34,931 nt of DNA, from the NCBI GenBank assembly GCA_013140885.1, contig JABFSC010000778.1, forward strand, positions 1-34,931. Reading direction: 5' to 3'. Made by a program: the position numbers and the translations under genes. Origin of the DNA: Deltaproteobacteria bacterium (GTDB lineage Bacteria > Desulfobacterota > Binatia > Bin18). The notes under the pieces are model-generated. The model saw only the letters and a list, made by a program, of their open reading frames with translations. It did not search any database and was not told the origin of the DNA. Below, one piece after another: positions 2 through 34,746 of the stretch (positions within the stretch are counted from its first letter, which is position 1; each line of letters opens with the position of its first letter).

Positions 2-1027
2 CCACGGACAACCCTGAGTTATCAACATGTCACGGAACGCGAGGCCATGTACGGTGCGAGTCAGGAAGTGCCATTCCCAGGGAAACTGCGGCTGCGCGGC
101 GCGGTGGCGACCCGCGACGCCGAGCGCCTCGAACAAGAATATCTCGCGGCACGGCTGCGCATCATCGCGCGTCTGAAGGAAGCCTACTATGACCTCCATT
201 TTGTTCATCACTCAATGGCGGTGGTGGACAAGAACAAACGTATTCTTACGGACTTCGCGCATGCGGCTCAGGCCCGCTACGCGGTCGGGCGTGCCGTGCA
301 GCCGGATGTCTTTCGAGCGCAAACCGAATTATCACGGGCGCTCGCGCGCTTGGCGACGTTAGAACAGCGGCGGGATTCCCTGCGGGCGGAGGTCAATCGC
401 CTCGTGAACCGCCCGCCAGTGGACCCGCTGGGAACACCGCCGGAGATCACCCTGACTGGGCTCCAACATAGTCTGGCCGATCTTCAGACTATGATCGAAC
501 AGGCCGCACCGATGCTGCGCGCACAACGCAAAGGGGTCGAACGCGGAGACCAGGCGATCGCCTTGGCACGGCGGGAATATTTCCCGGATTTTGACATCGG
601 GGTGTTCGGCTTTCGCAACGAGACGATGCGACAGAATGGGTATCAATTCATGATCGGTATCACGGTGCCCTTGTACTACGTGACGAAACAGCAACAGGGA
701 GTACAGGAGGCGCTCGCGACACGTGAGAGCGCCGCGCAGGACCTCCAGGCCGTGCGGCAAGACCTGCTGTTCCGCCTCAAGGATAACTTCGCCCAAGTGC
801 AGCGCGCGGAACGGCTCATCTCGATCCTACGGGACGCTATCATTCCGCAGGCCACGTTCACACTTGAGTCGGCCCAGGCCGGATATGCGGTTGGCACGGT
901 TGATTTCTTGACCTTGTTAAACAGCCTACTCACGCTGCAAGAGAATCAACTCGAACTGCACGGCGAGATAGTCGAACACGAAAAGGCCATCGCTCGGCTT
1001 GAAGAAACCGTGGGGACCGCGCCATGA
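2..1027 (+). CDS. cusC: Outer-membrane efflux factor (TolC/CusC family), 5'-truncated by the window edge
   Basis: The reading frame is open from nt 2, with no stop before the listed ATG at 47. The sequence is helical and Ala/Leu/Gln/Arg-rich, typical of OMF proteins. Its stop overlaps the next start (ATGA at 1024-1027). It lies directly upstream of the adaptor and RND pump genes. Confidence 0.75.
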   Translation, partial: PRTTLSYQHVTEREAMYGASQEVPFPGKLRLRGAVATRDAERLEQEYLAARLRIIARLKEAYYDLHFVHHSMAVVDKNKRILTDFAHAAQARYAVGRAVQPDVFRAQTELSRALARLATLEQRRDSLRAEVNRLVNRPPVDPLGTPPEITLTGLQHSLADLQTMIEQAAPMLRAQRKGVERGDQAIALARREYFPDFDIGVFGFRNETMRQNGYQFMIGITVPLYYVTKQQQGVQEALATRESAAQDLQAVRQDLLFRLKDNFAQVQRAERLISILRDAIIPQATFTLESAQAGYAVGTVDFLTLLNSLLTLQENQLELHGEIVEHEKAIARLEETVGTAP

Positions 1028-2271
1028 GATTTTCCTTGGGATCGTTGCTGATCGGTATCACGATAGGTGGTGGTGTCGCGGTCGCGGTCTTCTGGGCTGC
1101 GCCGTTTACAACCGTCCGGGTAGCCCAGAACTCACACACCGGAGCGGCGTCGCCCTCATCCGCTCCGGTCACACTCGCTCACGCCAGTCATACCGCCTCG
1201 CCTTCGGCGCCGATGGGAGGGGACGACCCAGCGAAAATCCAGGCGACGCTGTCCGAGAATCAGATGGTGGTGAGTCCCGAACGTCTGCAATCCATCGGCG
1301 TGAAATTCGCCTCTGCCGAACGCCGTCTTCTCGAACGGACCATCCGGACGGTGGGGAGAGTCGAGATCGACGAGCGCCAGCTTGCGCGGGTGAATATCAA
1401 GATCGAGGGCTGGATCGACCAATTACACGTGAACTACACCGGCGAGCGGGTGAAGAAGGACCAACTGCTCTTTACCGTCTATAGTCCAGATCTGGTGGCC
1501 ACCCAACAGGAGTATCTCCTGGCCTTAAAGAGCGGACGGCAGCTCGGCGGCAGCGAATTCCCCGAGGTCGCGGAAGGAGCGAAGTCGTTACTTGAAGTGA
1601 GCCGACAGCGGCTCCAACTCTGGGATGTTCCTGAGCACCAAATCCAGGATCTGGAACGGACCGGCACGGTGCTCAAAGCGCTGCATATCCACTCCCCGAT
1701 TACTGGCACGGTCATCAACAAAGTGGCGATTGCCGGTTTGCACGTGAATCCGGGCGACGAGTTGTACACCATCGCGGACCTCTCGCGGATCTGGATTCTC
1801 GCCGACCTCTACGAGTACGAACTGCCACTGATCAAGATGGGACAGCAAGCGACGGTCACCCTCTCCTACGATCCGGGAACCGTCCTCACCGGGCGCGTTG
1901 GGTTCGTCTACCCCACGATTGATCCCCAAACCCGTACGGGAAAGGTCCGCTTCGAGGTCGAGAATCGCGGCGAACAGTTGAAGCCTGGGATGTATGCCAA
2001 CGTTGCACTTCAAGTCTCGTTCGGGACCCGGTTGGTCGTTCCGCGAGAAGCGATCCTGGAATCAGGGGAGCGCCAAGTCCTCTTCATCCACCACGGCGGC
2101 GGGATGCTCGCATGGCGGACGGCACGGCTCGGCCTCCAAGCTGGAGACTGGGTAGAGGTAGTCGAGGGAGTGAAAGAAGGCGAACACGTGGTCACGTCAG
2201 CCAACTTTTTGATCGACTCGGAAAGCCGCTTGAAGGCTGCGATCAGCGGTATGCGCGGCATGCAACATTAG
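1024..2271 (+). CDS. cusB: RND efflux periplasmic adaptor (membrane fusion protein, CusB-like)
   Basis: 415 aa with an N-terminal membrane anchor (LLIGITIGGGVAVAVFWAAP). The content resembles HlyD/MFP barrel-sandwich proteins (e.g. VNPGDELYTIADLSRIWILADLYEYE). It sits between the OMF and RND genes, with an ATGA overlap with the upstream gene. Confidence 0.85.
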   Translation: MRFSLGSLLIGITIGGGVAVAVFWAAPFTTVRVAQNSHTGAASPSSAPVTLAHASHTASPSAPMGGDDPAKIQATLSENQMVVSPERLQSIGVKFASAERRLLERTIRTVGRVEIDERQLARVNIKIEGWIDQLHVNYTGERVKKDQLLFTVYSPDLVATQQEYLLALKSGRQLGGSEFPEVAEGAKSLLEVSRQRLQLWDVPEHQIQDLERTGTVLKALHIHSPITGTVINKVAIAGLHVNPGDELYTIADLSRIWILADLYEYELPLIKMGQQATVTLSYDPGTVLTGRVGFVYPTIDPQTRTGKVRFEVENRGEQLKPGMYANVALQVSFGTRLVVPREAILESGERQVLFIHHGGGMLAWRTARLGLQAGDWVEVVEGVKEGEHVVTSANFLIDSESRLKAAISGMRGMQH

Positions 2272-2279
2272 GAGGGGCT

Positions 2280-5200
2280 ATGGTTGAACGCATCATCGAC
2301 TTTAGTGCCCGCAACCGCTTCATTGTGCTGCTCCTCGTCTTCGGTTCCGCCGCCGCCGGTCTGTGGGCGTTGAAGAACACGCCGATGGACGCCATTCCTG
2401 ACCTCTCGGATACCCAAGTCATCATCTATACCACGTGGATGGGACGTTCACCGGATCTCGTGGAAGATCAAGTGACCTATCCCATTGTGACCACCCTCCT
2501 GTCCGCCCCAAAAGTCACGGCCGTGCGCGGGTTCTCGGACTTCGGTTTCTCCTACGTCTATGTGTTGTTTGAGGACGGCACGGACCTCTATTGGGCACGA
2601 TCCCGCGTGCTGGAGTACATGAACCAGCTCCTGGGCCGTCTGCCAGAAGGAGTCACCCCTCAGCTCGGCCCAGATGCCACGGCTGTTGGCTGGGTCTTTC
2701 AATACGCGCTTGTCGATGAAAGCGGGCAGCAAGACCTGGCGTCCCTGCGGTCCTTCCAAGACTGGTACTTGCGCTACTGGCTGCGGAGTGTCGATGGCGT
2801 CGCCGAAGTGGCCAGCGTCGGTGGCTTCGTGCGCCAGTATCAGGTGAATTTGGATCCCACCAAGGTCCTCGCCTATAAACTGTCAATCTCAGAGATTATT
2901 GAAAAAATACGGATGAACAATAACGACGTGGGGGGCCGTGTCGTGGAGTTCTCCGGCATCGAATACATGATTCGCGGGCGCGGCTATATCAAATCGACCA
3001 CGGATATCGAGCGGATCGCCTTGAGTGTGAACCAGAACGGCACGCCGATTCTGCTGCGCGATGTCGCCACGGTGCGCTTAGGGCCGGATATGCGCCGCGG
3101 TGTGGTCGAACTCAACGGCCAGGGAGAAGTCGTTGGCGGCATTGTGGTCATGCGCTTCGGCGAAGATGTCCCCAAGGTGATTGCACGCGTGAAGGCCAAG
3201 CTGACCGCGCTCGCACCGTCGCTGCCACCAGGGGTTAAAGTGGTGAGCATGTATGATCGTAGCGACCTCATTCATGAATCCATCGCGACCGCGAATGAGA
3301 ATCTGCTCGAGGAACTCCTCGTCGTGAGTGTCTTGGTCGTGGGGTTTCTCTTGCACCTCCGGTCGGCGCTGATCCCGATCATCATGCTGCCGTTGGCGAT
3401 CCTGATTTCTTTCATCCCCGCGTACTTCCTAGGGGTTGGGCTCAACATCATGTCCATTGGCGGCATTATTGTCGCTATTGGCGATATGGTCGATGCCGCG
3501 ATTATCATCGTGGACAACGCGCATAAGCGGCTAGAAGAGTGGGAACAAGGAGGTCGAGTCGGCGACCGTGCCCAGATTCTCATTGACGCGGCCAAAGAAG
3601 TCGGCCCAGCGATTTTCACCTCCGTATTAGTCATTGCCATTTCGTTTACCCCGGTCTTCGCTTTGGAGGCGCAAGAAGGTCGCTTGTTCAAACCGTTGGC
3701 GTTTACCAACAACCTGGCGATTGCCATGAGTGCCGTGCTGGCGATTACCTTGATCCCCGCGTTACTGGTGCCTCTCATGCGCGGGCGCATCATCCCGGAA
3801 CACCGTCATCCGGTGAACCGGTTCTTACAGCAGCTCTATGCGCCGGTCCTCCGGCTCGCGCTGCGCCATCGTGGGGTCGTCGTCCTGCTTGCCGTTGGGC
3901 TGACCATCAGCATCGTTCCCATCTACCAACGGATGGGCTCCGAGTTCATGCCCCCCCTGTATGAGGGGACCATCTTGTACATGCCGACGACGTTGCCAGG
4001 GATTTCCGTGACCGAGGCGGGCATGCTGCTCCAGCAAATGGATCGGAAGCTGAAAGCCTTCCCAGAGGTTGCCCACGTCTTCGGGAAAGCGGGCCGCGCC
4101 GAAACGTCCACGGACTCCGCGCCCTTCAGTATGATGGAGGTCGTCGTTGGCCTCAAATCGAAAGACCAGTGGCGTCCGGGCATGACGTACGAAGCGCTCG
4201 TTGATGACATGGACAAGACGCTTCAATTTCCGGGTGTGACGAACGCCTGGACGATGCCGATCAAGGCGCGGACCGACATGCTCACCACGGGAGTACGAAC
4301 ACCCGTGGGCATCAAGATTTTTGGCCCTGATCTCAAGCAGATTGAAGAGATTGGTCAGCATATAGAAATGACGGTACGAAATGTCACCGGCACACGCAGC
4401 GTCTACGCGGAACGTGTATCGGGAGGATATTTCCTCGACTTCACCATCAACCGCGAGGAAATTGCCCGGTACGGGTTGGCGGTGATGGACGTCGGTCAGA
4501 TCATCGAATCCGCCATTGGAGGAGAAAACATTGCCACGACCATTGAAGGCCGCGAGCGCTATCCCATCAACGTGCGCTATTTGCGGGAACTGCGGGATGA
4601 TCCAGAAAAACTCAACCGGGTCCTGGTCCCGACACCCACGGGCGCGCAGGTGCCATTAGCGCAGTTAACGACGCTGCGATTCGTGTCGGGCCCACCGATG
4701 ATTCGTGACGAGGATGGCATGCTCTCCGGCTATGTGTACGTCGATATGACGGGGCGCGATGTCGGTGGCTATGTCGAGGACCTCAAACGCGCCGTACAGG
4801 ACAAGGTCACGTTACCGCCCGGCTACACCATCACGTGGTCAGGACAGTATGAGTTCATGCAACGGGTGCAGGCCCGTTTATTGATTGTCGTTCCACTGAC
4901 CATCGCCATTATTTTTGTGCTTTTCTATCTTGAGTTTCGCTCCATCTCCGAGACCCTCATGGTGATGCTCGGTCTGCCCCTCTGCCTGGTCGGCGCGATC
5001 TGGTACCTCGCTCTCTTGGAGTACAACATGAGCATTGCCGTGTGGGTGGGCATCCTGGCATTGGCCGGGACAGCCGCGGAGACGAGCGCGGCCATGCTGG
5101 TGTATTTGGACAGCGCCTGCGCACGCAGGAAAGGCGTAGGTCAGTTGCGGTCACTTCAGGATTTGCTGGAGACCGTACACGCTGGAGCGGTCGAACGCAT

Positions 5201-5432
5201 TCGTCCCATGGTGATGGTGAGTGTGGTCGATATTTTGGGACTCGTACCGACGATGTGGGCGACGGGGACGGGAGCGGACGTGATGAAACGCCTCGCGGCG
5301 CCAACGGTTGGTGGTGTGATGTCTGGGCTTGTCCTTACCCTATTCGTCATTCCGGCTTTGTACGCGATGTGGAAATGGCGCTGGGAAATACAGCCCGCAC
5401 TGGTACGGGCAAACGAAGGAATCCAAGCATAA
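2280..5432 (+). CDS. cusA: Heavy-metal-efflux RND inner-membrane pump (CusA-like, Cu(I)/Ag(I))
   Basis: The ORF track starts at 2112, but ATG 2280 is preceded by AGGAGG (2269-2274) and yields the typical RND N-terminus MVERIIDFSARNRFIVLLL. TM4 carries AIGDMVDAAIIIVDNA, which matches the HME-RND A-x5-D-x6-(E/D) proton-relay motif in its CusA-like form. Length is about 1050 aa. Confidence 0.9.
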   Translation: MVERIIDFSARNRFIVLLLVFGSAAAGLWALKNTPMDAIPDLSDTQVIIYTTWMGRSPDLVEDQVTYPIVTTLLSAPKVTAVRGFSDFGFSYVYVLFEDGTDLYWARSRVLEYMNQLLGRLPEGVTPQLGPDATAVGWVFQYALVDESGQQDLASLRSFQDWYLRYWLRSVDGVAEVASVGGFVRQYQVNLDPTKVLAYKLSISEIIEKIRMNNNDVGGRVVEFSGIEYMIRGRGYIKSTTDIERIALSVNQNGTPILLRDVATVRLGPDMRRGVVELNGQGEVVGGIVVMRFGEDVPKVIARVKAKLTALAPSLPPGVKVVSMYDRSDLIHESIATANENLLEELLVVSVLVVGFLLHLRSALIPIIMLPLAILISFIPAYFLGVGLNIMSIGGIIVAIGDMVDAAIIIVDNAHKRLEEWEQGGRVGDRAQILIDAAKEVGPAIFTSVLVIAISFTPVFALEAQEGRLFKPLAFTNNLAIAMSAVLAITLIPALLVPLMRGRIIPEHRHPVNRFLQQLYAPVLRLALRHRGVVVLLAVGLTISIVPIYQRMGSEFMPPLYEGTILYMPTTLPGISVTEAGMLLQQMDRKLKAFPEVAHVFGKAGRAETSTDSAPFSMMEVVVGLKSKDQWRPGMTYEALVDDMDKTLQFPGVTNAWTMPIKARTDMLTTGVRTPVGIKIFGPDLKQIEEIGQHIEMTVRNVTGTRSVYAERVSGGYFLDFTINREEIARYGLAVMDVGQIIESAIGGENIATTIEGRERYPINVRYLRELRDDPEKLNRVLVPTPTGAQVPLAQLTTLRFVSGPPMIRDEDGMLSGYVYVDMTGRDVGGYVEDLKRAVQDKVTLPPGYTITWSGQYEFMQRVQARLLIVVPLTIAIIFVLFYLEFRSISETLMVMLGLPLCLVGAIWYLALLEYNMSIAVWVGILALAGTAAETSAAMLVYLDSACARRKGVGQLRSLQDLLETVHAGAVERIRPMVMVSVVDILGLVPTMWATGTGADVMKRLAAPTVGGVMSGLVLTLFVIPALYAMWKWRWEIQPALVRANEGIQA

Positions 5433-14468: not shown

Positions 14469-16934
14469 ATGAAAGAATCGCAATCCGTGACCATAGATCC
14501 CATCTGCGGAATGACCGTGGACGAAGCAACCGCTCTCCACGCGGAACGCGAGGGAAAGACGTTCTACTTTTGCAGCGACCACTGTCGGCTCAAGTTTCGG
14601 TCAGCGCCGGCGAGCGTGACGCATGCGGAAGTGCCTCCCGGCGGCTCTCAGTCTCCTCTCGCGCACGAGCACGGTGACCGTTCGACGGCGTGGTCCTCGA
14701 CGCAATATTTTTGCCCGATGTGCCCTGGCGTGGAATCCGACCAGCCCGGTGACTGTTCGCAATGCGGGATGGCGTTGGAGCGCAATCCCGCACGGGTCGG
14801 GCTGGTGTCAGGAAAAACGATTTACACCTGTCCGATGCACCCCGAAGTGCGGCAGGACCATCCCGGCGATTGCCCCAAGTGCGGCATGACGCTGGTGCGG
14901 AAGACCCCGACGGCGAGCCCGGATCAAGTGGAGGACGCTGAGCTGCATGACATGACGACGCGCTTCTGGATCGGTGCGGCGCTGACGTTGCCGGTGTTTT
15001 TCCTGGCGATGGCGCACGTGATCCCGGCGCTGGCCAGGCAGTCCTGGGCGGATAGTCACACCTCGCGCTGGATACAACTTGCGCTCACCACGCCCGTGGT
15101 CTGGTGGGCGGGCGGGCCGTTCTTCCGCCGGGGCTGGCGCTCGGTCGTGACGCGTCACTTGAACATGTTTACGCTGATCGCCCTCGGCGTGGGCGCGGCG
15201 TTCGTCTTTAGCGCGGTGGCCATGCTCGCGCCCGACCTGTTCCCGCATACCATGCGACACGAGGGCAAGGTGGCCATCTACTTTGAAGCCGCCGCGGTGA
15301 TCGTTGTTCTCGTGTTGCTGGGGCAGGTGCTCGAGCTCCGTGCCCGCAGCCGTACCGGCAGCGCCATCAAAGCGTTGCTCAACCTCGCCCCGCCCATGGC
15401 GCGGCGGGTCACACCGGGGGGCGATCATGAAGTCTCGCTCGACCAAGTGAAAGTCGGCGACCAGTTACGGGTTGTTCCAGGTGACAAGGTGCCTGTCGAT
15501 GGCGTGGTCGTGGAAGGCCATTCCAATGTGGAGGAATCCATGATCACCGGCGAACCGCTTCCGGTGGAAAAGAGCGTCGGCGACAAAGTGACGGGCGGCA
15601 CCGTCAATGGAACCGGCAGTTTCGTCATGCGCGCCGAGCGGGTCGGGAGCGACACGTTGCTCGGGCAGATCGTCAACATGGTTGCCGAAGCCCAGCGCAG
15701 CCGTGCACCCATTCAAGGTCTCGTGGACAAGGTCGCGAGCATCTTCGTGCCGGTGGTGCTGGCGGTGGCAGTGCTTACTTTCGTTGTCTGGCTATGGCTG
15801 GGGCCAGAGCCAGAGCTCGCGCACGCCATCGTCAACGCCGTTGCGGTCCTCATCATTGCCTGCCCGTGCGCCCTCGGCCTGGCCACGCCCATGTCCATCA
15901 TGGTCGGCGTCGGACGCGGTGCGCAGGAAGGCGTGCTCGTGAAAAACGCCGAAGCGCTCGAACGGTTGGAGAAAGTCACCACGCTCGTCGTGGACAAGAC
16001 GGGCACCCTGACGGAGGGCAAACCTAAGCTCGTGGATGTCCTGCCCACCGGCGGTTTCGAGACGAAGGAATTTCTGCGGCTCGCCGCCTCACTGGAGCAG
16101 AACAGCGAACACCCACTCGCCGCCGCGATTGTGCAGGGCGCGAAGGAGCAAGGCATCGCCATCGAGACGGTAAAAGACTTTCGTTCGGTGACGGCGGGCG
16201 GTGTTCTCGGCACCGTCGCTGGTCGCGCGGTGATGATCGGCAAGCCGGCCTTCCTGCGAGACAAAGGCATTGCCAGTCTGGAGCCGCTCGAAGCCTCGGC
16301 CGTGCAACTCCAGGAGGAAGGCAAGACCGCGATGTATGTCGCCGTGGATGGCAAGCCAGCGGGAATCCTCGCCGTCGCTGACCCGATCAAATCGACCACC
16401 CCCGAAGCCATCCGCGAACTCCACGCGCTCGGTTTGAAACTCGTCATGCTCACCGGCGACAACCGCCGCACCGCCGCCGCAGTAGCGAAGACACTTGGCC
16501 TCGATGCGGTGGAAGCGGACATCGAACCCGCCGGCAAAGTCAGCCATGTGAAGAAGCTGCGGGCGGAAGGCAACCACGTCGCGATGGCTGGCGACGGCAT
16601 CAACGACGCCCCCGCCCTGAGCGAAGCCGAAGTCGGCATTGCGATGGGCACGGGCACCGACGTGGCCATGCAGAGTGCTGGAGTCACCCTCGTGAAAGGC
16701 GACCTCCGCGGTATTGCCAAAGCGATTCGCCTCAGTCGCGCCACCATGCGGAATATCCGGCAGAATCTGTTCTTCGCCTTTGTCTACAATGCGCTGGGAA
16801 TTCCGGTGGCGGCGGGCGTGTTGTACCCGTTCTTCGATTTGCTGCTCAGCCCGATCATTGCCGGTGCCGCGATGAGCCTGAGTTCAGTGTCCGTCATCAG
16901 CAACGCCTTGCGGCTGCGAAAGGTGAGGCTTTGA
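14469..16934 (+). CDS. copA: Cu(I)/Ag(I)-translocating P1B-1-type ATPase with an N-terminal TRASH/YHS-like domain plus two CPM[CH]P...C..CGM metal-binding modules
   Basis: Catalytic motifs are [15 protein letters not shown] and the TM CPC ([12 protein letters not shown]). The P1B-1 signatures are N-x6-YN-x4-P ([14 protein letters not shown]) and MxxSS (MSLSSVS). The N-terminus has CGMTV...YFCSDHC, then [24 protein letters not shown] and [24 protein letters not shown]. The ATG 14469 start was chosen over the 14412 ORF start. Confidence 0.92.
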
Positions 16935-24114: not shown

Positions 24115-25017
24115 ATGTTCTTGAAGCATGGTACGGACATGGCGATGATGTCGGAACATGCAGCGCGAGGAGTCCGTGAAGGCCAGCCCGCCCCTTGGCG
24201 TGGACGACTCTTTCTCTGGGAAGGGCGAGGCCTCTATCTCGGACCGACGTTTGCCACGGACATGCATGCACACCATGCTGCCCAGATCTGTGTCGCGTTA
24301 ACAGGGACGTTTCGACTGCGCAGTGGCCACAATGCGTCGTGGTTCCGTTCCAGATCAATCATCATCCCCGCTGACCACGCTCATCAGCTTGATGGAGAAG
24401 GAGGCGTGTTGAGTCTGCTATTCCTCGATCCGGAAGCAGTCGAAACACGGGCGCTGATGCAACAGCAGGGAGCTGAGGTCCGCACGATTCCAGAGCCCAC
24501 GCTTCGCCGTCTACTCCCTCCACTGCGCCGGTGCTGGAGAGAGCAGTGGGACAACCATGAGAGTGAGATACTCTGCCGCAGGTTCATTCAGATACTCATC
24601 TTCCCCGGAAATGTGCCGCGACCACTCGATCCGCGAATCACACAGGCCGTGCAACTGTTCCGGGCGAACACCGACCGACGCATGACCATTGCGGAGGCCG
24701 CGGCCGCTGTAGCTCTATCCCCGAGCCGCTTGGCGCACCTCTTTCGCGCGCACATGGGGTTGGCCGTTCGACGCTATCTCCTCTGGCTCCGGCTTGCCGA
24801 GGCGTTGCAGAAGATAACCTGCGGCGTATCGCTCACGGTGGCAGCCCATGCCGCCGGATTTGCTGACTCCGCGCATCTGAGTCGGACGTTCCGGCGCATG
24901 TTTGGGCTCGTGCCTTCCATGCTGTCAAGACATAGCACGTTTGTTCAAGCGTCGAGCGGCGAAGCTCCCTATAGTCGCTTAACGAGTTCTCCACTCGTGA
25001 AAGATTATAGGAGGTAG
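24115..25017 (+). CDS. AraC-family transcriptional regulator
   Basis: The C-terminal dual HTH reads MTIAEAAAAVALSPSRLAHLFRAHMGLAVRRYLLWLRLAEAL...VAAHAAGFADSAHLSRTFRRMFGLVPS. Confidence 0.85.
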   Translation: MFLKHGTDMAMMSEHAARGVREGQPAPWRGRLFLWEGRGLYLGPTFATDMHAHHAAQICVALTGTFRLRSGHNASWFRSRSIIIPADHAHQLDGEGGVLSLLFLDPEAVETRALMQQQGAEVRTIPEPTLRRLLPPLRRCWREQWDNHESEILCRRFIQILIFPGNVPRPLDPRITQAVQLFRANTDRRMTIAEAAAAVALSPSRLAHLFRAHMGLAVRRYLLWLRLAEALQKITCGVSLTVAAHAAGFADSAHLSRTFRRMFGLVPSMLSRHSTFVQASSGEAPYSRLTSSPLVKDYRR

Positions 25018-25019
25018 AC

Positions 25020-25679
25020 ATGCAAGAGCACAGACGATCATACGTTCCTGCCCTGGGGTTTCATTGGTTGACGCGCATGTATGATCCCGTGGTTGCCGTT
25101 CTGCTCAAGGAAGAGAAATTTAAGCGGGCGTTGGTCAACCAGGCCGGTCTCAAGCCAGGTCATCGGGTGCTGGATCTTGGTTGCGGAACAGGCTCGCTCA
25201 CGATCATGCTGAAACGCGCCTGTCCTACCGCAACCGTTGTGGGGCTCGACGGAGACCCGGCAGTTTTAGCTATTGCTCGCGCGAAAATAGCCGCTGCGGA
25301 TGTGCACGTCGAGTTGCAGGAAGGGTTGGCCTTCGCGCCACCGTTCGCACCCGCATCCTTTGACCGTGTCGTATCGAGCTTAGTTTTTCATCATCTCACC
25401 ACGGAAGACAAACGCCGCAGCCTCGCGCGGGTGCGTGAGTTACTTCGTCCCGGAGGGGAACTGCACATCACTGACTGGGGACAGGCGCAGAATCCGCTCA
25501 TGCGTCTTGCCTTCCTCAGCGTTCAGGCGCTGGATGGATTTCGGACGACAACGGACAATGTGCGTGGGCGCCTGATCTCATTTATGCAAGAAGCTGGTTT
25601 TACTGAAGTCGCCGAGACGCACCGTGCAATGACACCGCTGGGGACGCTCTCGCGCTACCGGGCGATTGCGCCAACGTGA
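25020..25679 (+). CDS. Class I SAM-dependent methyltransferase
   Basis: AGGAGG lies upstream of the ATG. Motif I is VLDLGCGTGSLT, with post-I LDGD and VVSSLVFHHL. Confidence 0.8.
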   Translation: MQEHRRSYVPALGFHWLTRMYDPVVAVLLKEEKFKRALVNQAGLKPGHRVLDLGCGTGSLTIMLKRACPTATVVGLDGDPAVLAIARAKIAAADVHVELQEGLAFAPPFAPASFDRVVSSLVFHHLTTEDKRRSLARVRELLRPGGELHITDWGQAQNPLMRLAFLSVQALDGFRTTTDNVRGRLISFMQEAGFTEVAETHRAMTPLGTLSRYRAIAPT

Positions 25680-25739
25680 AGAGAGAAAATCCCGAGCGTG
25701 AGGGAGCCATCCTCGGATGACGCGGGAGGAGAAATACGT

Positions 25740-26105
25740 ATGAGTGACCACGAAGTAAATAGGCACATCGAGATGTCCAACGTGCCTCATGGTCCTCCTG
25801 ACAGAGGCGGGCAGGCAGTGAACGATCCGGTCTGCGGCATGGAAGTGAATCCAGTGACCACGGTTCACACGCATGAGTACGGTGGGCAGAGATATTTTTT
25901 CTGTAGCAGTCAATGCTTGGCGAAATTTCGCGTGGAACCCAGCAAATATCTGGTCTCTGCTGTCGAGCCCTCTACGGTTGTTACCGCACCCGACAACACA
26001 GGGCAACCAGCAGTGGCAACCGACGCTAGGTACTCATGCATCCTGAAATTCGTCACAAAGAGCCAGGAGCCTGTCCGCGGTGTGGCATGGCGCTCGAACC
26101 TGTGA
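25740..26105 (+). CDS. TRASH/YHS-domain ORF, apparently the detached N-terminus of the downstream Cu ATPase
   Basis: GGGAGGAG lies 8 nt before ATG 25740. The ORF contains CGMEV...YFFCSSQC, as in copy 1. Homology ends at ...ARYSC, after which the frame runs out of register to a stop at 26105. Confidence 0.6.
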
Positions 26106-28246
26106 CACCGAGTACTTTTCCCGCCAAGACAGAATACGTATGCCCGATGCATCCAGACATCGTGCGCATGGAGCCAGAAAACTGTTCCATCTGTGGAATG
26201 GCGCTCGAACCCCGCACAGTGACCGGCGAAGAGGAAGTCAATCCAGAACTGTCAGATATGACCCGCCGCTTCTGGGTCAGCTTCGGACTGACACTGCCCG
26301 TGCTCCTTTTGGCGATGTCAGAGATGGTGCCGGGCCGTCCGGTGCAGCATGTGCTGTCCGCGCGCGTGCTAGTGTGGATTCAGCTTGCCTTTGCTACTCC
26401 GGTCGTACTCTGGGGCGGGTGGCCATTTTTCCAGCGAGGATGGCTGTCCCTCGTCAACCGCAGTCTCAATATGTTTACCCTGATCGCGATCGGCACGGGC
26501 ACTGCCTATGTCTACAGCGTGATCGTGACTCTCTTCCCAGCGCTCTTTCCCGATTCCTTTCGCGTGCATAGCGGAGAGGTCGCGGTGTATTTCGAGGCGG
26601 CAGCGGTGATCACGGCACTTGTCCTTTTGGGACAAGTGCTCGAACTGCGGGCACGCAGCCAAACCAGTAGTGCTATCAAAGCCCTCCTCAGCCTTGCTCC
26701 CAAAACCGCCCGTATGCTTCGGGATGACCGGACGGAGGAAGATGTTCCTCTTGATCGTGTTCAGCCAGGGAACCGACTGCGGGTCCGCCCCGGAGAGAAG
26801 GTGCCGGTGGATGGTGTGGTCCTTGAAGGCACGAGTGCCGTCGATGAATCGATGGTGACAGGAGAACCGATCCCCGTGGAGAAGACGCCCGGCGTTCGTG
26901 TGACTGGTGGCACGGTCAACGGTACGGGCAGTTTGGTCATGCGCGCGGAGCGGGTCGGCAGTGACACGCTGCTCGCGCAGATCGTACACATGGTGGGCGA
27001 AGCCCAGCGCAGCCGCGCGCCCATTCAACGATTAGCGGATGTCGTTGCCGCGTACTTTGTTCCGATAGTCGTCATTGTCGCAATCGTGACCTTCGGGGCA
27101 TGGGCGTTCTACGGTCCAGAGCCGCGCATGGCATACGCCTTGGTGAATGCGGTGGCTGTGCTTATCATCGCCTGTCCGTGCGCGGTAGGATTGGCGACGC
27201 CAATGTCGATCATGGTGGGAACGGGGCGCGGCGCCATGGCTGGGGTGTTGATCAAGAATGCGGAGGCGCTCGAAGCGTTGGAGAAAGTCGACACCCTCGT
27301 GGTGGACAAAACCGGCACACTCACCGAAGGCAAACCTCGCTTGACCTCGGTCGTTCCCTTGCCAGGACAAGGCGAGGGTGAACTCCTGCGATTAGCAGCG
27401 AGCCTTGAACGGGGAAGTGAACATCCCCTGGCCGCCGCCATTGTCGCCGAAGCACAAGCGAGAGGTGTGCAGCTCGCTGACGTTAGAGACTTTCAGTCTC
27501 GTACGGGCAAAGGCGTGGTCGGTACGGTAAGCGGTCGCGGTGTAGCCCTTGGGAATCGCAAGCTCTTTGAAGAACTCGCGGTTGACCTGCAGGGTCTTCC
27601 TGAGCAGGCTGAAGTCCTGCGCCGGGATGGACACACAGTGATGTTTGTCGCCCTGAACGGACACGCAGCCGGACTGCTTGGCGTGGCTGATCCGATTAAG
27701 GTATCCACCGCTGAGGCTCTCCAACAGTTACGCGAGGAAGGCGTTCATGTCGTGATGGTCACCGGTGACAGCCGCACGACCGCCGAGGCCGTGGCTCGTA
27801 CATTAGGGATTGACGCCGTCGAGGCCGAAATCCTGCCTCAACAGAAGGGCGAGATCGTGAAGCGACTGCAAGCGGAGGGGCACGTGGTGGCGATGGCCGG
27901 GGATGGCGTCAATGATGCTCCCGCCCTGGCACAGGCGCAGGTGGGAATCGCCATGGGCACGGGCACGGACGTCGCGATGGAAAGTGCCGGCGTGACGCTC
28001 GTGAAGGGGGACTTACGCGGAATCGTGCGTGCTCGCAGGCTCAGCCGAGGCACCATGCGCAATATCCGACAGAATCTGTTCTTTGCCTTTATCTATAATG
28101 CGCTCGGTGTCCCGATTGCAGCGGGCGTGCTCTATCCGATGTTCGGGCTCCTGCTAAGTCCGATGATCGCGAGCGCGGCTATGACGTTTAGCTCTGTGTC
28201 GGTGATCGCCAACGCACTGCGATTGCGTACACTGACACTCTCATAG
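26036..28246 (+). CDS. copA: Cu(I)/Ag(I) P1B-1-type ATPase, copy 2 (N-terminally severed; possibly a pseudogene or a split gene)
   Basis: Motifs are [41 protein letters not shown] and MTFSSVS. The listed ATG is the Met of a CPMHP motif whose Cys-Pro are missing. A second, intact module is present ([24 protein letters not shown]). Confidence 0.85.
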
Positions 28247-28327
28247 CGGTTGACAATCCACCTGCACTGGATCACGTGCGACTTTCCTTTTGCCAGGGTG
28301 TTTGAGAACACGAAAGGAACATGTTTT

Positions 28328-33899: not shown

Positions 33900-34017
33900 A
33901 GGCTCCTTCCGATGATCGCGAGTTCGCTATTTTGTCACACGTCCAGATCGGCGTCTTCAACGTCACGGATGTGATGACCGTCCCACCTTGTCTCGCGCTT
34001 CGCCCATACCATATCCC

Positions 34018-34746
34018 ATGCCCCACACGAAAGATGTCAGCATCGCCACCGCGCTCGACTTCGCTCGCAAAGATGAACTGTGGGTCAAGAAGTGGCTGAC
34101 CAAGCCCTTCTACGAGATTTGGCAGGAACTCAATGGCCGCAGTGTCTTGCCGCTGGTCACGGCGGAGAAATCGACGTACCAGTCGATCCAGAAAGTGAAG
34201 ACGTTCACGCCGCCCTCGCGTGATCGGGCCTTTGTCTTCTCGCAATTATCCAAGAATATTGAGAATGCCTGTATCAAGGCGCGCACGTACCGACTCGCGG
34301 CCACAAGAGCCGTCATCATGTTGAAGACCCAGACCTTTCGCATGGCATGGGTCGAGGTGCGCTTCTCCCGGGCGACAGCCTTTCCCCAGGACATCGTGCA
34401 CGCGATTGCGCCCGTGTTTACCCAGCTCTTTGATCCCGCGGAAGACTATCGCGCCACGGCCATTGTCCTCACGAAACTGGCAGAGGACCGGATGGTGCAG
34501 CTGGACCTCTTTGGCGAAGTGGTGCGGGCCGAGCGGCTCTCCAAGGTGTATCAGGCGGTGGATCGGATGCGGGAGCAGTATGGGAAACACACAGTGTTCC
34601 TGGGCAGTAGTCTGCTGGCGCGGCAGTTCGCGCAACACGTAGGGGAACAAGGCGATGCCCCGCAACGCCGGCAGCACTTGTTCAAAGGGGAGACGCAGCG
34701 CCAACGGCTGGGCATTCCGATGTTGATGGGCACGTTGCTGGAGTGA
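34018..34746 (+). pseudogene. 5'-truncated Y-family DNA polymerase (UmuC/DinB-like thumb plus little-finger region only)
   Basis: ALDFARKDELWVKKWLTKPFYEIWQELNGRSVLPL ... QLDLFGE ... VDRMREQYGKHTVFLGSS parallels the C-terminal ~240 residues of UmuC-type polymerases. The catalytic palm/fingers N-terminus is absent, and the upstream DNA belongs to a - strand gene. Confidence 0.55.

Follow-up and report, generated by a model that had tools for sequence, protein, structure and literature searches.

A seven-nucleotide deletion divides a TRASH-HMBD-CopA copper-pump gene into two overlapping reading frames

How does a gene for a copper pump come to be laid out in two overlapping reading frames, and is the pump still made from it? 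These questions are raised by copA2, the second copA-type gene on a 34,931-nt stretch of DNA from a Deltaproteobacteria bacterium (contig JABFSC010000778.1 of assembly GCA_013140885.1), the whole of which we refer to as the window. On its plus strand, an open reading frame (ORF) for a TRASH metal-binding domain, ORF1, overlaps with an ATPase ORF, and translation places the latter in frame -1 relative to the former. Our analysis identifies copA2 as a member of the fused TRASH-HMBD-CopA family with a disabling lesion in HMBD1, the first of its two heavy-metal-binding domains (HMBD1 and HMBD2). We consider it about an even bet (probability roughly 0.5) that a working, TRASH-less pump resembling the CopA protein of Legionella pneumophila (LpCopA) is still produced from this locus, which would then be a young split gene that additionally yields a free TRASH protein.

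Homologous loci were gathered by whole-genome searches of 40 relatives, and the window was aligned at the DNA level with four intact relatives (alignment A1). Relative to locus L011 and the three other sequences, A1 contains a lone gap of seven columns at the CPMHP motif, with the flanks in register on both sides. Where L011 reads TA[CTCATGT]CCCATGCATCC, the window reads TACTCATGCATCC; in codons, TAC TCA TGT CCC ATG CAT CCT (YSCPMHP) in L011 stands against TAC TCA TGC AT CCT in the window. The protein encoded at L011, P0008 (Logan SRR13871839), is the closest relative of the N-terminal module of the window gene (72% identity) and reads ...DATYSCPMHPEIRQKEPGACP... at this site. What the first CPMHP heavy-metal-binding motif has lost by the deletion is its Cys and Pro codons and one further base. 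As Cys-Pro stands ahead of the M/T-H/C/D-P motif in all of the 454 intact HMBD copies present in 238 related ATPases, the residues lost here are invariant in the family. With this invariance, and with a downstream frame of 736 codons that is a full CopA homologue (E = 2e-277 to PDB 3RFU), the pattern is not one of chance. An earlier note on this DNA, made from the letters of the window, had placed the TRASH domain and the residues ...ARYSC in one frame with a stop at 26105, the ATPase in a -1 frame open from 26030, and a 7-nt deletion within CPMHP between them. All of these coordinates hold, the YSCPMHP motif that it predicted is present in P0008, and the gap measures exactly 7 nt. The physical overlap that it described between the codons for Cys and Met is likewise borne out: the first start of the ATPase frame, ATG 26036-26038, shares bases 26037-26038 with the TGC codon for Cys100 of ORF1 (26037-26039).

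The gap can be placed at more than one position within CATG, which is the microhomology expected for slippage between a CATG(Y) and a CATGC repeat 7 nt apart. As had been proposed from the window, replication slippage between CATG(C) repeats in an ancestral TCATGYCCCATGCAT is the most likely origin of the 7-bp loss, and CATG repeats with the corresponding spacing of 7 nt are found in the DNA of L011. The lesion is a recent, lineage-specific event of an ordinary kind. The linker between the TRASH domain and HMBD1 (window 25975-26010) also differs from that of L011, by an in-frame 15 nt; this linker is variable in length.

The exact 121-aa ORF1, including the 21 residues specific to the deleted allele, was recovered on separately assembled Logan contigs from three runs (SRR28962026, SRR28962013 and SRR28962014), and it is also present in NCBI nr. 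All three assemblies carry the deleted state and match the window at 100% identity over 1.4-4.7 kb that include the junction; the seven nucleotides are present in none of them. DNA identity to L011 is unbroken across the junction (85% for 26029-26171 in a sliding window). We are accordingly confident that the organism, or the sampled population, truly carries the deletion. A chimeric assembly at the motif was considered and is ruled out by the unbroken similarity to L011; copA2 has a mosaic breakpoint, and it lies about 190 nt further downstream. Across window 25729-28271, the TRASH-HMBD module and the upstream leader share 70-87% DNA identity with L011 versus 46-61% with L012, and the pump core from about 26250 onward is 91-97% identical to L012 in the sliding window. 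This switch in affinity points to a putative breakpoint of recombination where the membrane domain begins.

The relatives of copA2 present the gene in its undivided state. In L002, L003, L004 and L006, the TRASH domain, the linker, the stretch Y-T-C-P-M/T-H-P...CxxCGM, the second HMBD and the pump form a single ORF each, and wherever a GTDB relative was examined at this stretch (L002-L007), its CPMHP motifs are intact. The fused TRASH-HMBD-HMBD-CopA P1B-1 ATPases from soil and sediment metagenomes (P0008, P0005, L002-L006) have the same domain order and share 87-92% protein identity with the window in the core; they keep TRASH domain, HMBDs and pump in one frame, whereas the window is 7 nt short in HMBD1 and has two ORFs. 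Thousands of fused TRASH-pump proteins are present in the protein database, and nearly all database relatives are fused. A domain census of 238 relatives counted 196 with a TRASH domain and two HMBDs, 14 with a TRASH domain and one HMBD, 12 with two HMBDs and no TRASH domain, and 10 with one HMBD and no TRASH domain. The full-length relatives examined are fused, and orthologs with a conserved two-ORF arrangement, which would have pointed to an ancient split, were not among them.

No relative sharing the split was found among 5.8 billion proteins searched, and a search restricted to small proteins returned no ORF1-like free TRASH protein but ORF1 itself. A gapped DNA pattern fitting either the deleted or the intact allele had no match in JGI metagenome contigs or GTDB genomes. 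When the N-terminal module was used in read-through form with an X at the gap, no near-identical intact allele was found, and P0008 (72%) was again the best match. Five database proteins do begin exactly at the motif Met, and a recurrent split at this codon was considered and rejected. Two of these proteins, P0117 (L009:2581-3090) and P0026 (L010:1418-1930), are called from the motif Met though their CPMHP motif is intact and in frame with the upstream sequence; their TRASH domains lie in a different frame from CPMHP, and the breaks are located elsewhere, in the TRASH-HMBD1 linker. These breaks may be real lesions or homopolymer errors; in the linker of L010, the two frames diverge at a stretch of six C, a possible mark of the frame break. 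P0013 (L102:1460-1500) is called from the motif Met as well, and its open frame extends another 11 codons upstream, where there is a TTG; this protein has at least four HMBDs (four within the 190 residues read) and no TRASH domain, and is probably a TRASH-less CopA with a miscalled start, the upstream TTG being the true one. P0108 is located on a 2.4-kb contig. Several of the database "ATPases" that start exactly at the motif Met are start-calling artefacts. The excess of N-terminal breaks among the relatives is likewise a selection effect of the full-length pump query.

What, then, can the two halves still provide? In ORF1, the cysteines of the TRASH domain are all in place (C32-x22-C55-x3-C59) and fit the pattern C-x19-22-C-x3-C. 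Given that the native Shine-Dalgarno (SD) sequence, GGGAGGAG, has been kept and the cysteine pattern is intact, ORF1 is very likely translated; it should give a free 121-aa TRASH-domain protein ending in a 21-residue nonsense tail.

The ATPase ORF is more extensively preserved than its broken N-terminus would suggest. A complete HMBD (PF19335) motif, CPMHP...CxxCGM, was not found in HMBD1, from which Cys-Pro and the preceding strand are gone in the ATPase frame; with its central strand lost, the HMBD1 remnant probably acts as a mere leader. Pfam recognizes two HMBD stretches, an E1-E2_ATPase domain (195.6 bits) and a HAD Hydrolase domain (125.9 bits) in this ORF. Its protein, P0002, contains the phosphorylation motif DKTGT, the actuator motif TGE, the nucleotide-domain motif SEHPL and the hinge motif GDGxNDxP. 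The transmembrane (TM) Cu(I) site is present with CPC (TM4), YN (TM5) and MxxSS (TM6), column for column with LpCopA (PDB 3RFU), and neither internal stops nor further frame shifts were found over the 736 codons. LpCopA (PDB 3RFU/4BBJ) is likewise 736 aa long and aligns over residues 30-735 (E = 2.3e-277); its single N-terminal CPMHP...CxxCGM domain matches HMBD2 of the window. Since this alignment runs end to end and HMBD2 falls on the metal-binding domain (MBD) of LpCopA, nothing found in a known working CopA is missing from the pump ORF, which begins with a short tail, continues with a single undamaged HMBD and ends in the complete core. In LpCopA, the MBD binds Ag(I) through M44, C59 and M61; C42 is no ligand and sits in the turn after the central beta-strand, and the N-terminal truncations T1 and T2 have about wild-type ATPase activity, the MBD being regulatory (Hu et al., 2024, PMC11970713). 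The two proteins differ in origin, LpCopA being encoded by one natural gene that has a start of its own, whereas the architecture of the window pump comes from the lesion, and the 29-residue leader in the window is a broken HMBD1, unlike the autoinhibitory tail of LpCopA. Natural TRASH-less relatives exist at 79-80% identity (L020, L021), and the TRASH domain is consequently not obligatory.

The pump core shows purifying selection. With L011 and L003 as outgroups to polarize the substitutions, the core has accumulated 40 synonymous and 6 non-synonymous changes on the window branch after the divergence from L012, compared with 27 and 17 on the L012 branch; the pairwise ratio of non-synonymous to synonymous rates (dN/dS) is 0.12. 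The signs of a decayed pseudogene, additional lesions and a dN/dS nearing 1, were not found, a pattern still compatible with a very young pseudogene. The intact pump ORF and the branch ratio are to be expected both from a very recent deletion and from a pump on which selection still acts.

A pump could be translated from the divided gene in two ways. Ribosomes that end ORF1 at TGA 26103 might reinitiate on GTG 26102 or on ATG 26087; alternatively, weak independent initiation might occur at ATG 26036. The GTGA stop/start overlap is of the kind used in translational coupling, and such coupling is plausible here. A reinitiated pump would carry a leader of 13-18 residues before the intact HMBD2. 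The earlier note had offered a pseudogene and a gene fission as possible outcomes and, in the second case, let the ATPase restart at the Met codon of the motif itself. This codon is indeed in frame, but its SD signal is at background level, and ATG 26087 and GTG 26102 are at least as plausible as restart points.

Our preferred reading is that the pump is still made, at a lower level and without its TRASH domain, and that the locus would be a young split gene rather than a dead one. Several findings weigh against it. A dead gene, too, would have the 40:6 ratio if it had lost the seven nucleotides very recently, and at least two further TRASH-HMBD-CopA paralogues exist in the genome, so that loss of this copy could be neutral. 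ATG 26036 is preceded by an SD-like AGGU only, five bases upstream (26028-26031, -3.7 kcal/mol), and 43% of all ATG triplets in the window match or beat its duplex energy. A sigma-70-type scan, which is uninformative for planctomycetes, found no promoter-like site inside ORF1. The predicted mRNA fold pairs GGTACTC (26029-26035) with GAGTACT (26110-26116; pairing element 26110-26117), and this long-range stem would enclose the entire ORF overlap and sequester the sole SD-like element before ATG 26036. Finally, the three Logan runs are neighbors by accession number; they probably come from the same study, and a single population may be all that they sample.

The strongest competing explanation is an early pseudogene, in which the deletion is real, the pump is no longer usefully translated and the copy is heading to decay, with paralogous CopA proteins and CusCBA covering export. 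We regard this as a distinct possibility. It would account for an ATPase ORF that has neither a dedicated SD sequence nor a promoter and whose first start, at 26036, sits inside translated ORF1. The backup that it calls for exists: CusCBA is encoded in the same window, and the genome has a further TRASH-HMBD-CopA on contig C281 (G000:C281:8313-9941, 63% identical to copA2, running off the contig), at least the third of its kind, which makes copA2 a redundant copy. Moreover, the split is unique to this lineage, and the searches of the relatives' whole genomes found the locus missing from three congeneric genomes, which marks it as accessory. A gene on its way to decay is less easily reconciled with 736 codons free of a second lesion and with all catalytic motifs intact, with a branch of 40 synonymous to 6 non-synonymous changes that bears no sign of relaxed constraint, and with three runs whose assemblies all show the deleted allele; reinitiation would find a ready route in the GTGA overlap and in the in-frame ATG close by.

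The idea of a working pump from a young split gene also has a more far-reaching version, in which a one-step gene fission has produced a free TRASH copper-binding protein and a coupled pump restarting at GTGA, both of them functional and selected; this we consider unlikely. Still less probable is that the deletion is a sequencing or assembly artefact, or a minority variant next to a predominant intact allele. The genome is a fragmented metagenome-assembled genome (MAG; 795 contigs, 84% completeness, 5% contamination), and contig-level assemblies hide minority alleles, so that a co-existing intact allele would be invisible if rare variants are dropped. Against this stand the recurrence of the same junction at full identity in three separately assembled runs, a loss of 7 nt outside any homopolymer, which is atypical of short-read errors, and the continuous similarity to L011 across the site, which leaves no room for a chimeric join. 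Programmed -1 ribosomal frameshifting within 26030-26105, rejoining the frames into a TRASH-pump fusion alongside a short TRASH protein as an inverse of CopA(Z) in E. coli, is highly improbable: the ATPase frame is -1 relative to ORF1 and an A_AAG tetramer, known as a weak slip site for a single tRNA, stands in the right phase at 26057-26060, but this AAAG represents conserved K-E codons that are found in intact relatives too, no X XXY YYZ heptamer occurs in the zero frame between 26030 and 26105, the two-frame layout is present in no relative (L009 and L010 break at other positions), and HMBD1 would remain destroyed in any fusion product. The slippery site of E. coli copA reportedly reads CCCAAAG. 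As the window has neither a slippery heptamer nor a conserved two-frame layout, its split is a DNA lesion and not programmed recoding.

Two known arrangements invite comparison. In E. coli, programmed -1 frameshifting in copA is described in PMC7558416 as the source of a free metal-binding domain, CopA(Z), next to the pump (Meydan, 2017; Drees, 2017). The earlier note had drawn a parallel to this system, and the parallel stands for the outcome, in which one locus would give, besides the pump, a small metal-binding protein of the cytoplasm that stems from the pump's N-terminus. It fails for the mechanism: in E. coli the copA DNA specifies an undamaged pump, the short product arising by recoding, whereas in the window the DNA itself is shifted, without a slippery heptamer and without conservation of the two frames; furthermore, the CopA(Z) domain is a ferredoxin-fold HMA domain, whereas that of the window is a TRASH domain in a layout that is not conserved. 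In the archaeal copM(copT)-copA operons of Sulfolobales and Ferroplasma, copA is immediately preceded by a gene for a free TRASH metallochaperone of 56-71 aa, with which it is co-transcribed and, in one case, shares an 11-bp overlap (PMC3595675). Here the likeness consists in a small TRASH-only protein encoded just upstream of a Cu-ATPase gene. The archaeal arrangement is ancient and conserved and has separate starts, whereas that of the window is a single recent event whose relatives are fused and whose ORF1 carries a 21-residue nonsense tail. An independent, conserved start with its own ribosome-binding site, as the pump genes of copM-copA and copZ-copA operons possess, was not found for the window pump. 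The locus consequently belongs neither to the copM-copA type, for want of a conserved independent start, nor to the CopA(Z) type, for want of a recoding site.

The genomic surroundings of copA2 (Table 1) are those of a copper-resistance island, which is what the window represents, in a Gemmatales-like planctomycete MAG. Downstream of the CusC/B/A-like genes follow Metal_resist proteins, an FNR/2Fe-2S reductase and a cytochrome c set. The intact first copy, copA1, had been described as a TRASH domain and both motifs in one polypeptide, and Pfam agrees for its protein P0003. The longest ORF of copA1 begins at TTG 14412; its TRASH domain lies after ATG 14469 (MKESQ...), and this ATG is the more likely start. 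Elsewhere in the genome, G000:C442:7680-7811 is a segment of another TRASH-bearing P-type ATPase gene, which brings the total to at least three or four such pumps. The PEP synthase encoded in the window is closest to those of Gemmataceae, Gemmatales and Planctomycetota MAGs (74-80%), and the nearest relatives of the pump in the protein database carry labels from many phyla; together with the mosaic structure, these affinities fit a mobile accessory locus. At window 33988-34746, a 252-aa ORF matches just the C-terminal domain of Y-family polymerases (IMS_C) and leaves no space for the catalytic N-terminal one; the gene is possibly truncated or ImuB-like.

Table 1. Coordinates of copA2, its parts and its neighbors in the window
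Feature	Position	Strand	Remarks
CusC/B/A-like genes	47-5432		Copper island in the window
copA1 (P0003)	14469-16934		TRASH, two HMBDs and ATPase in a single polypeptide (Pfam: YHS, two HMBDs, ATPase)
AraC-type regulator	24115-25017		Directly upstream of the split gene, with the methyltransferase
Methyltransferase	25020-25679		Directly upstream of the split gene, with the AraC-type regulator
Shine-Dalgarno sequence of the original gene	25724..25731	+	Anti-SD duplex -10.3 kcal/mol, among the strongest in the window; now serves ORF1 only
ORF1	25740..26105	+	121 aa: 100 native residues (TRASH domain, linker, ...ARYSC) and 21 out-of-frame residues
YHS/TRASH metal-binding domain	25818..25952	+	Pfam PF04945, residues 27-71, 59.8 bits (cut-off 30.3); genome search match
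TAG closing the ATPase frame upstream	26027..26029	+	Frame open only from 26030
Deletion junction	26035..26039	+	One CATGC copy left; relatives have CATGY-CC-CATGC coding S-C-P-M-H
ATPase ORF	26036..28246	+	736 aa: HMBD1 remnant, intact HMBD2, complete P1B-1 Cu(I)-ATPase core
HMBD1 remnant	26036..26101	+	Without the Y-S-C-P strand and turn; Met, CxxC and GM residues kept
In-frame ATG (Met18 of the ATPase ORF)	26087..26089	+	14-16 nt upstream of the ORF1 stop; candidate reinitiation start
GTGA stop/start overlap	26102..26105	+	In-frame GTG (Val23 of the ATPase frame, 26102-26104) over the ORF1 TGA
ORF1 stop TGA	26103-26105	+	From translation
HMBD2, intact	26135..26212	+	Best Pfam HMBD stretch, residues 34-59; aligned to LpCopA residues 36-65
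Mosaic breakpoint	26220..26250	+	Sliding-window identity; blastn match to L012 begins at 26221

Taken by itself, copA2 is one more frameshifted MAG gene in an accessory, redundant copper-resistance locus. Both of its halves (25740-26105 and 26036-28246) are listed at NCBI and in NCBI nr as ordinary separate proteins, apparently with no frameshift flag, and a word of caution on annotation is in order since gene callers and the NCBI record treat them as such. At the same time, the locus is a natural truncation experiment in which a pump loses its TRASH domain and its first HMBD but keeps an LpCopA-like architecture, and in which a free TRASH protein is left behind a strong ribosome-binding site. 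If both products are made, this would illustrate how easily a sensor domain tethered to a pump becomes a stand-alone, metallochaperone-like protein. A fission, if true, would provide a one-step bacterial route to the layout of the archaeal copM-copA operons, and a DNA-level counterpart of CopA(Z) in E. coli.

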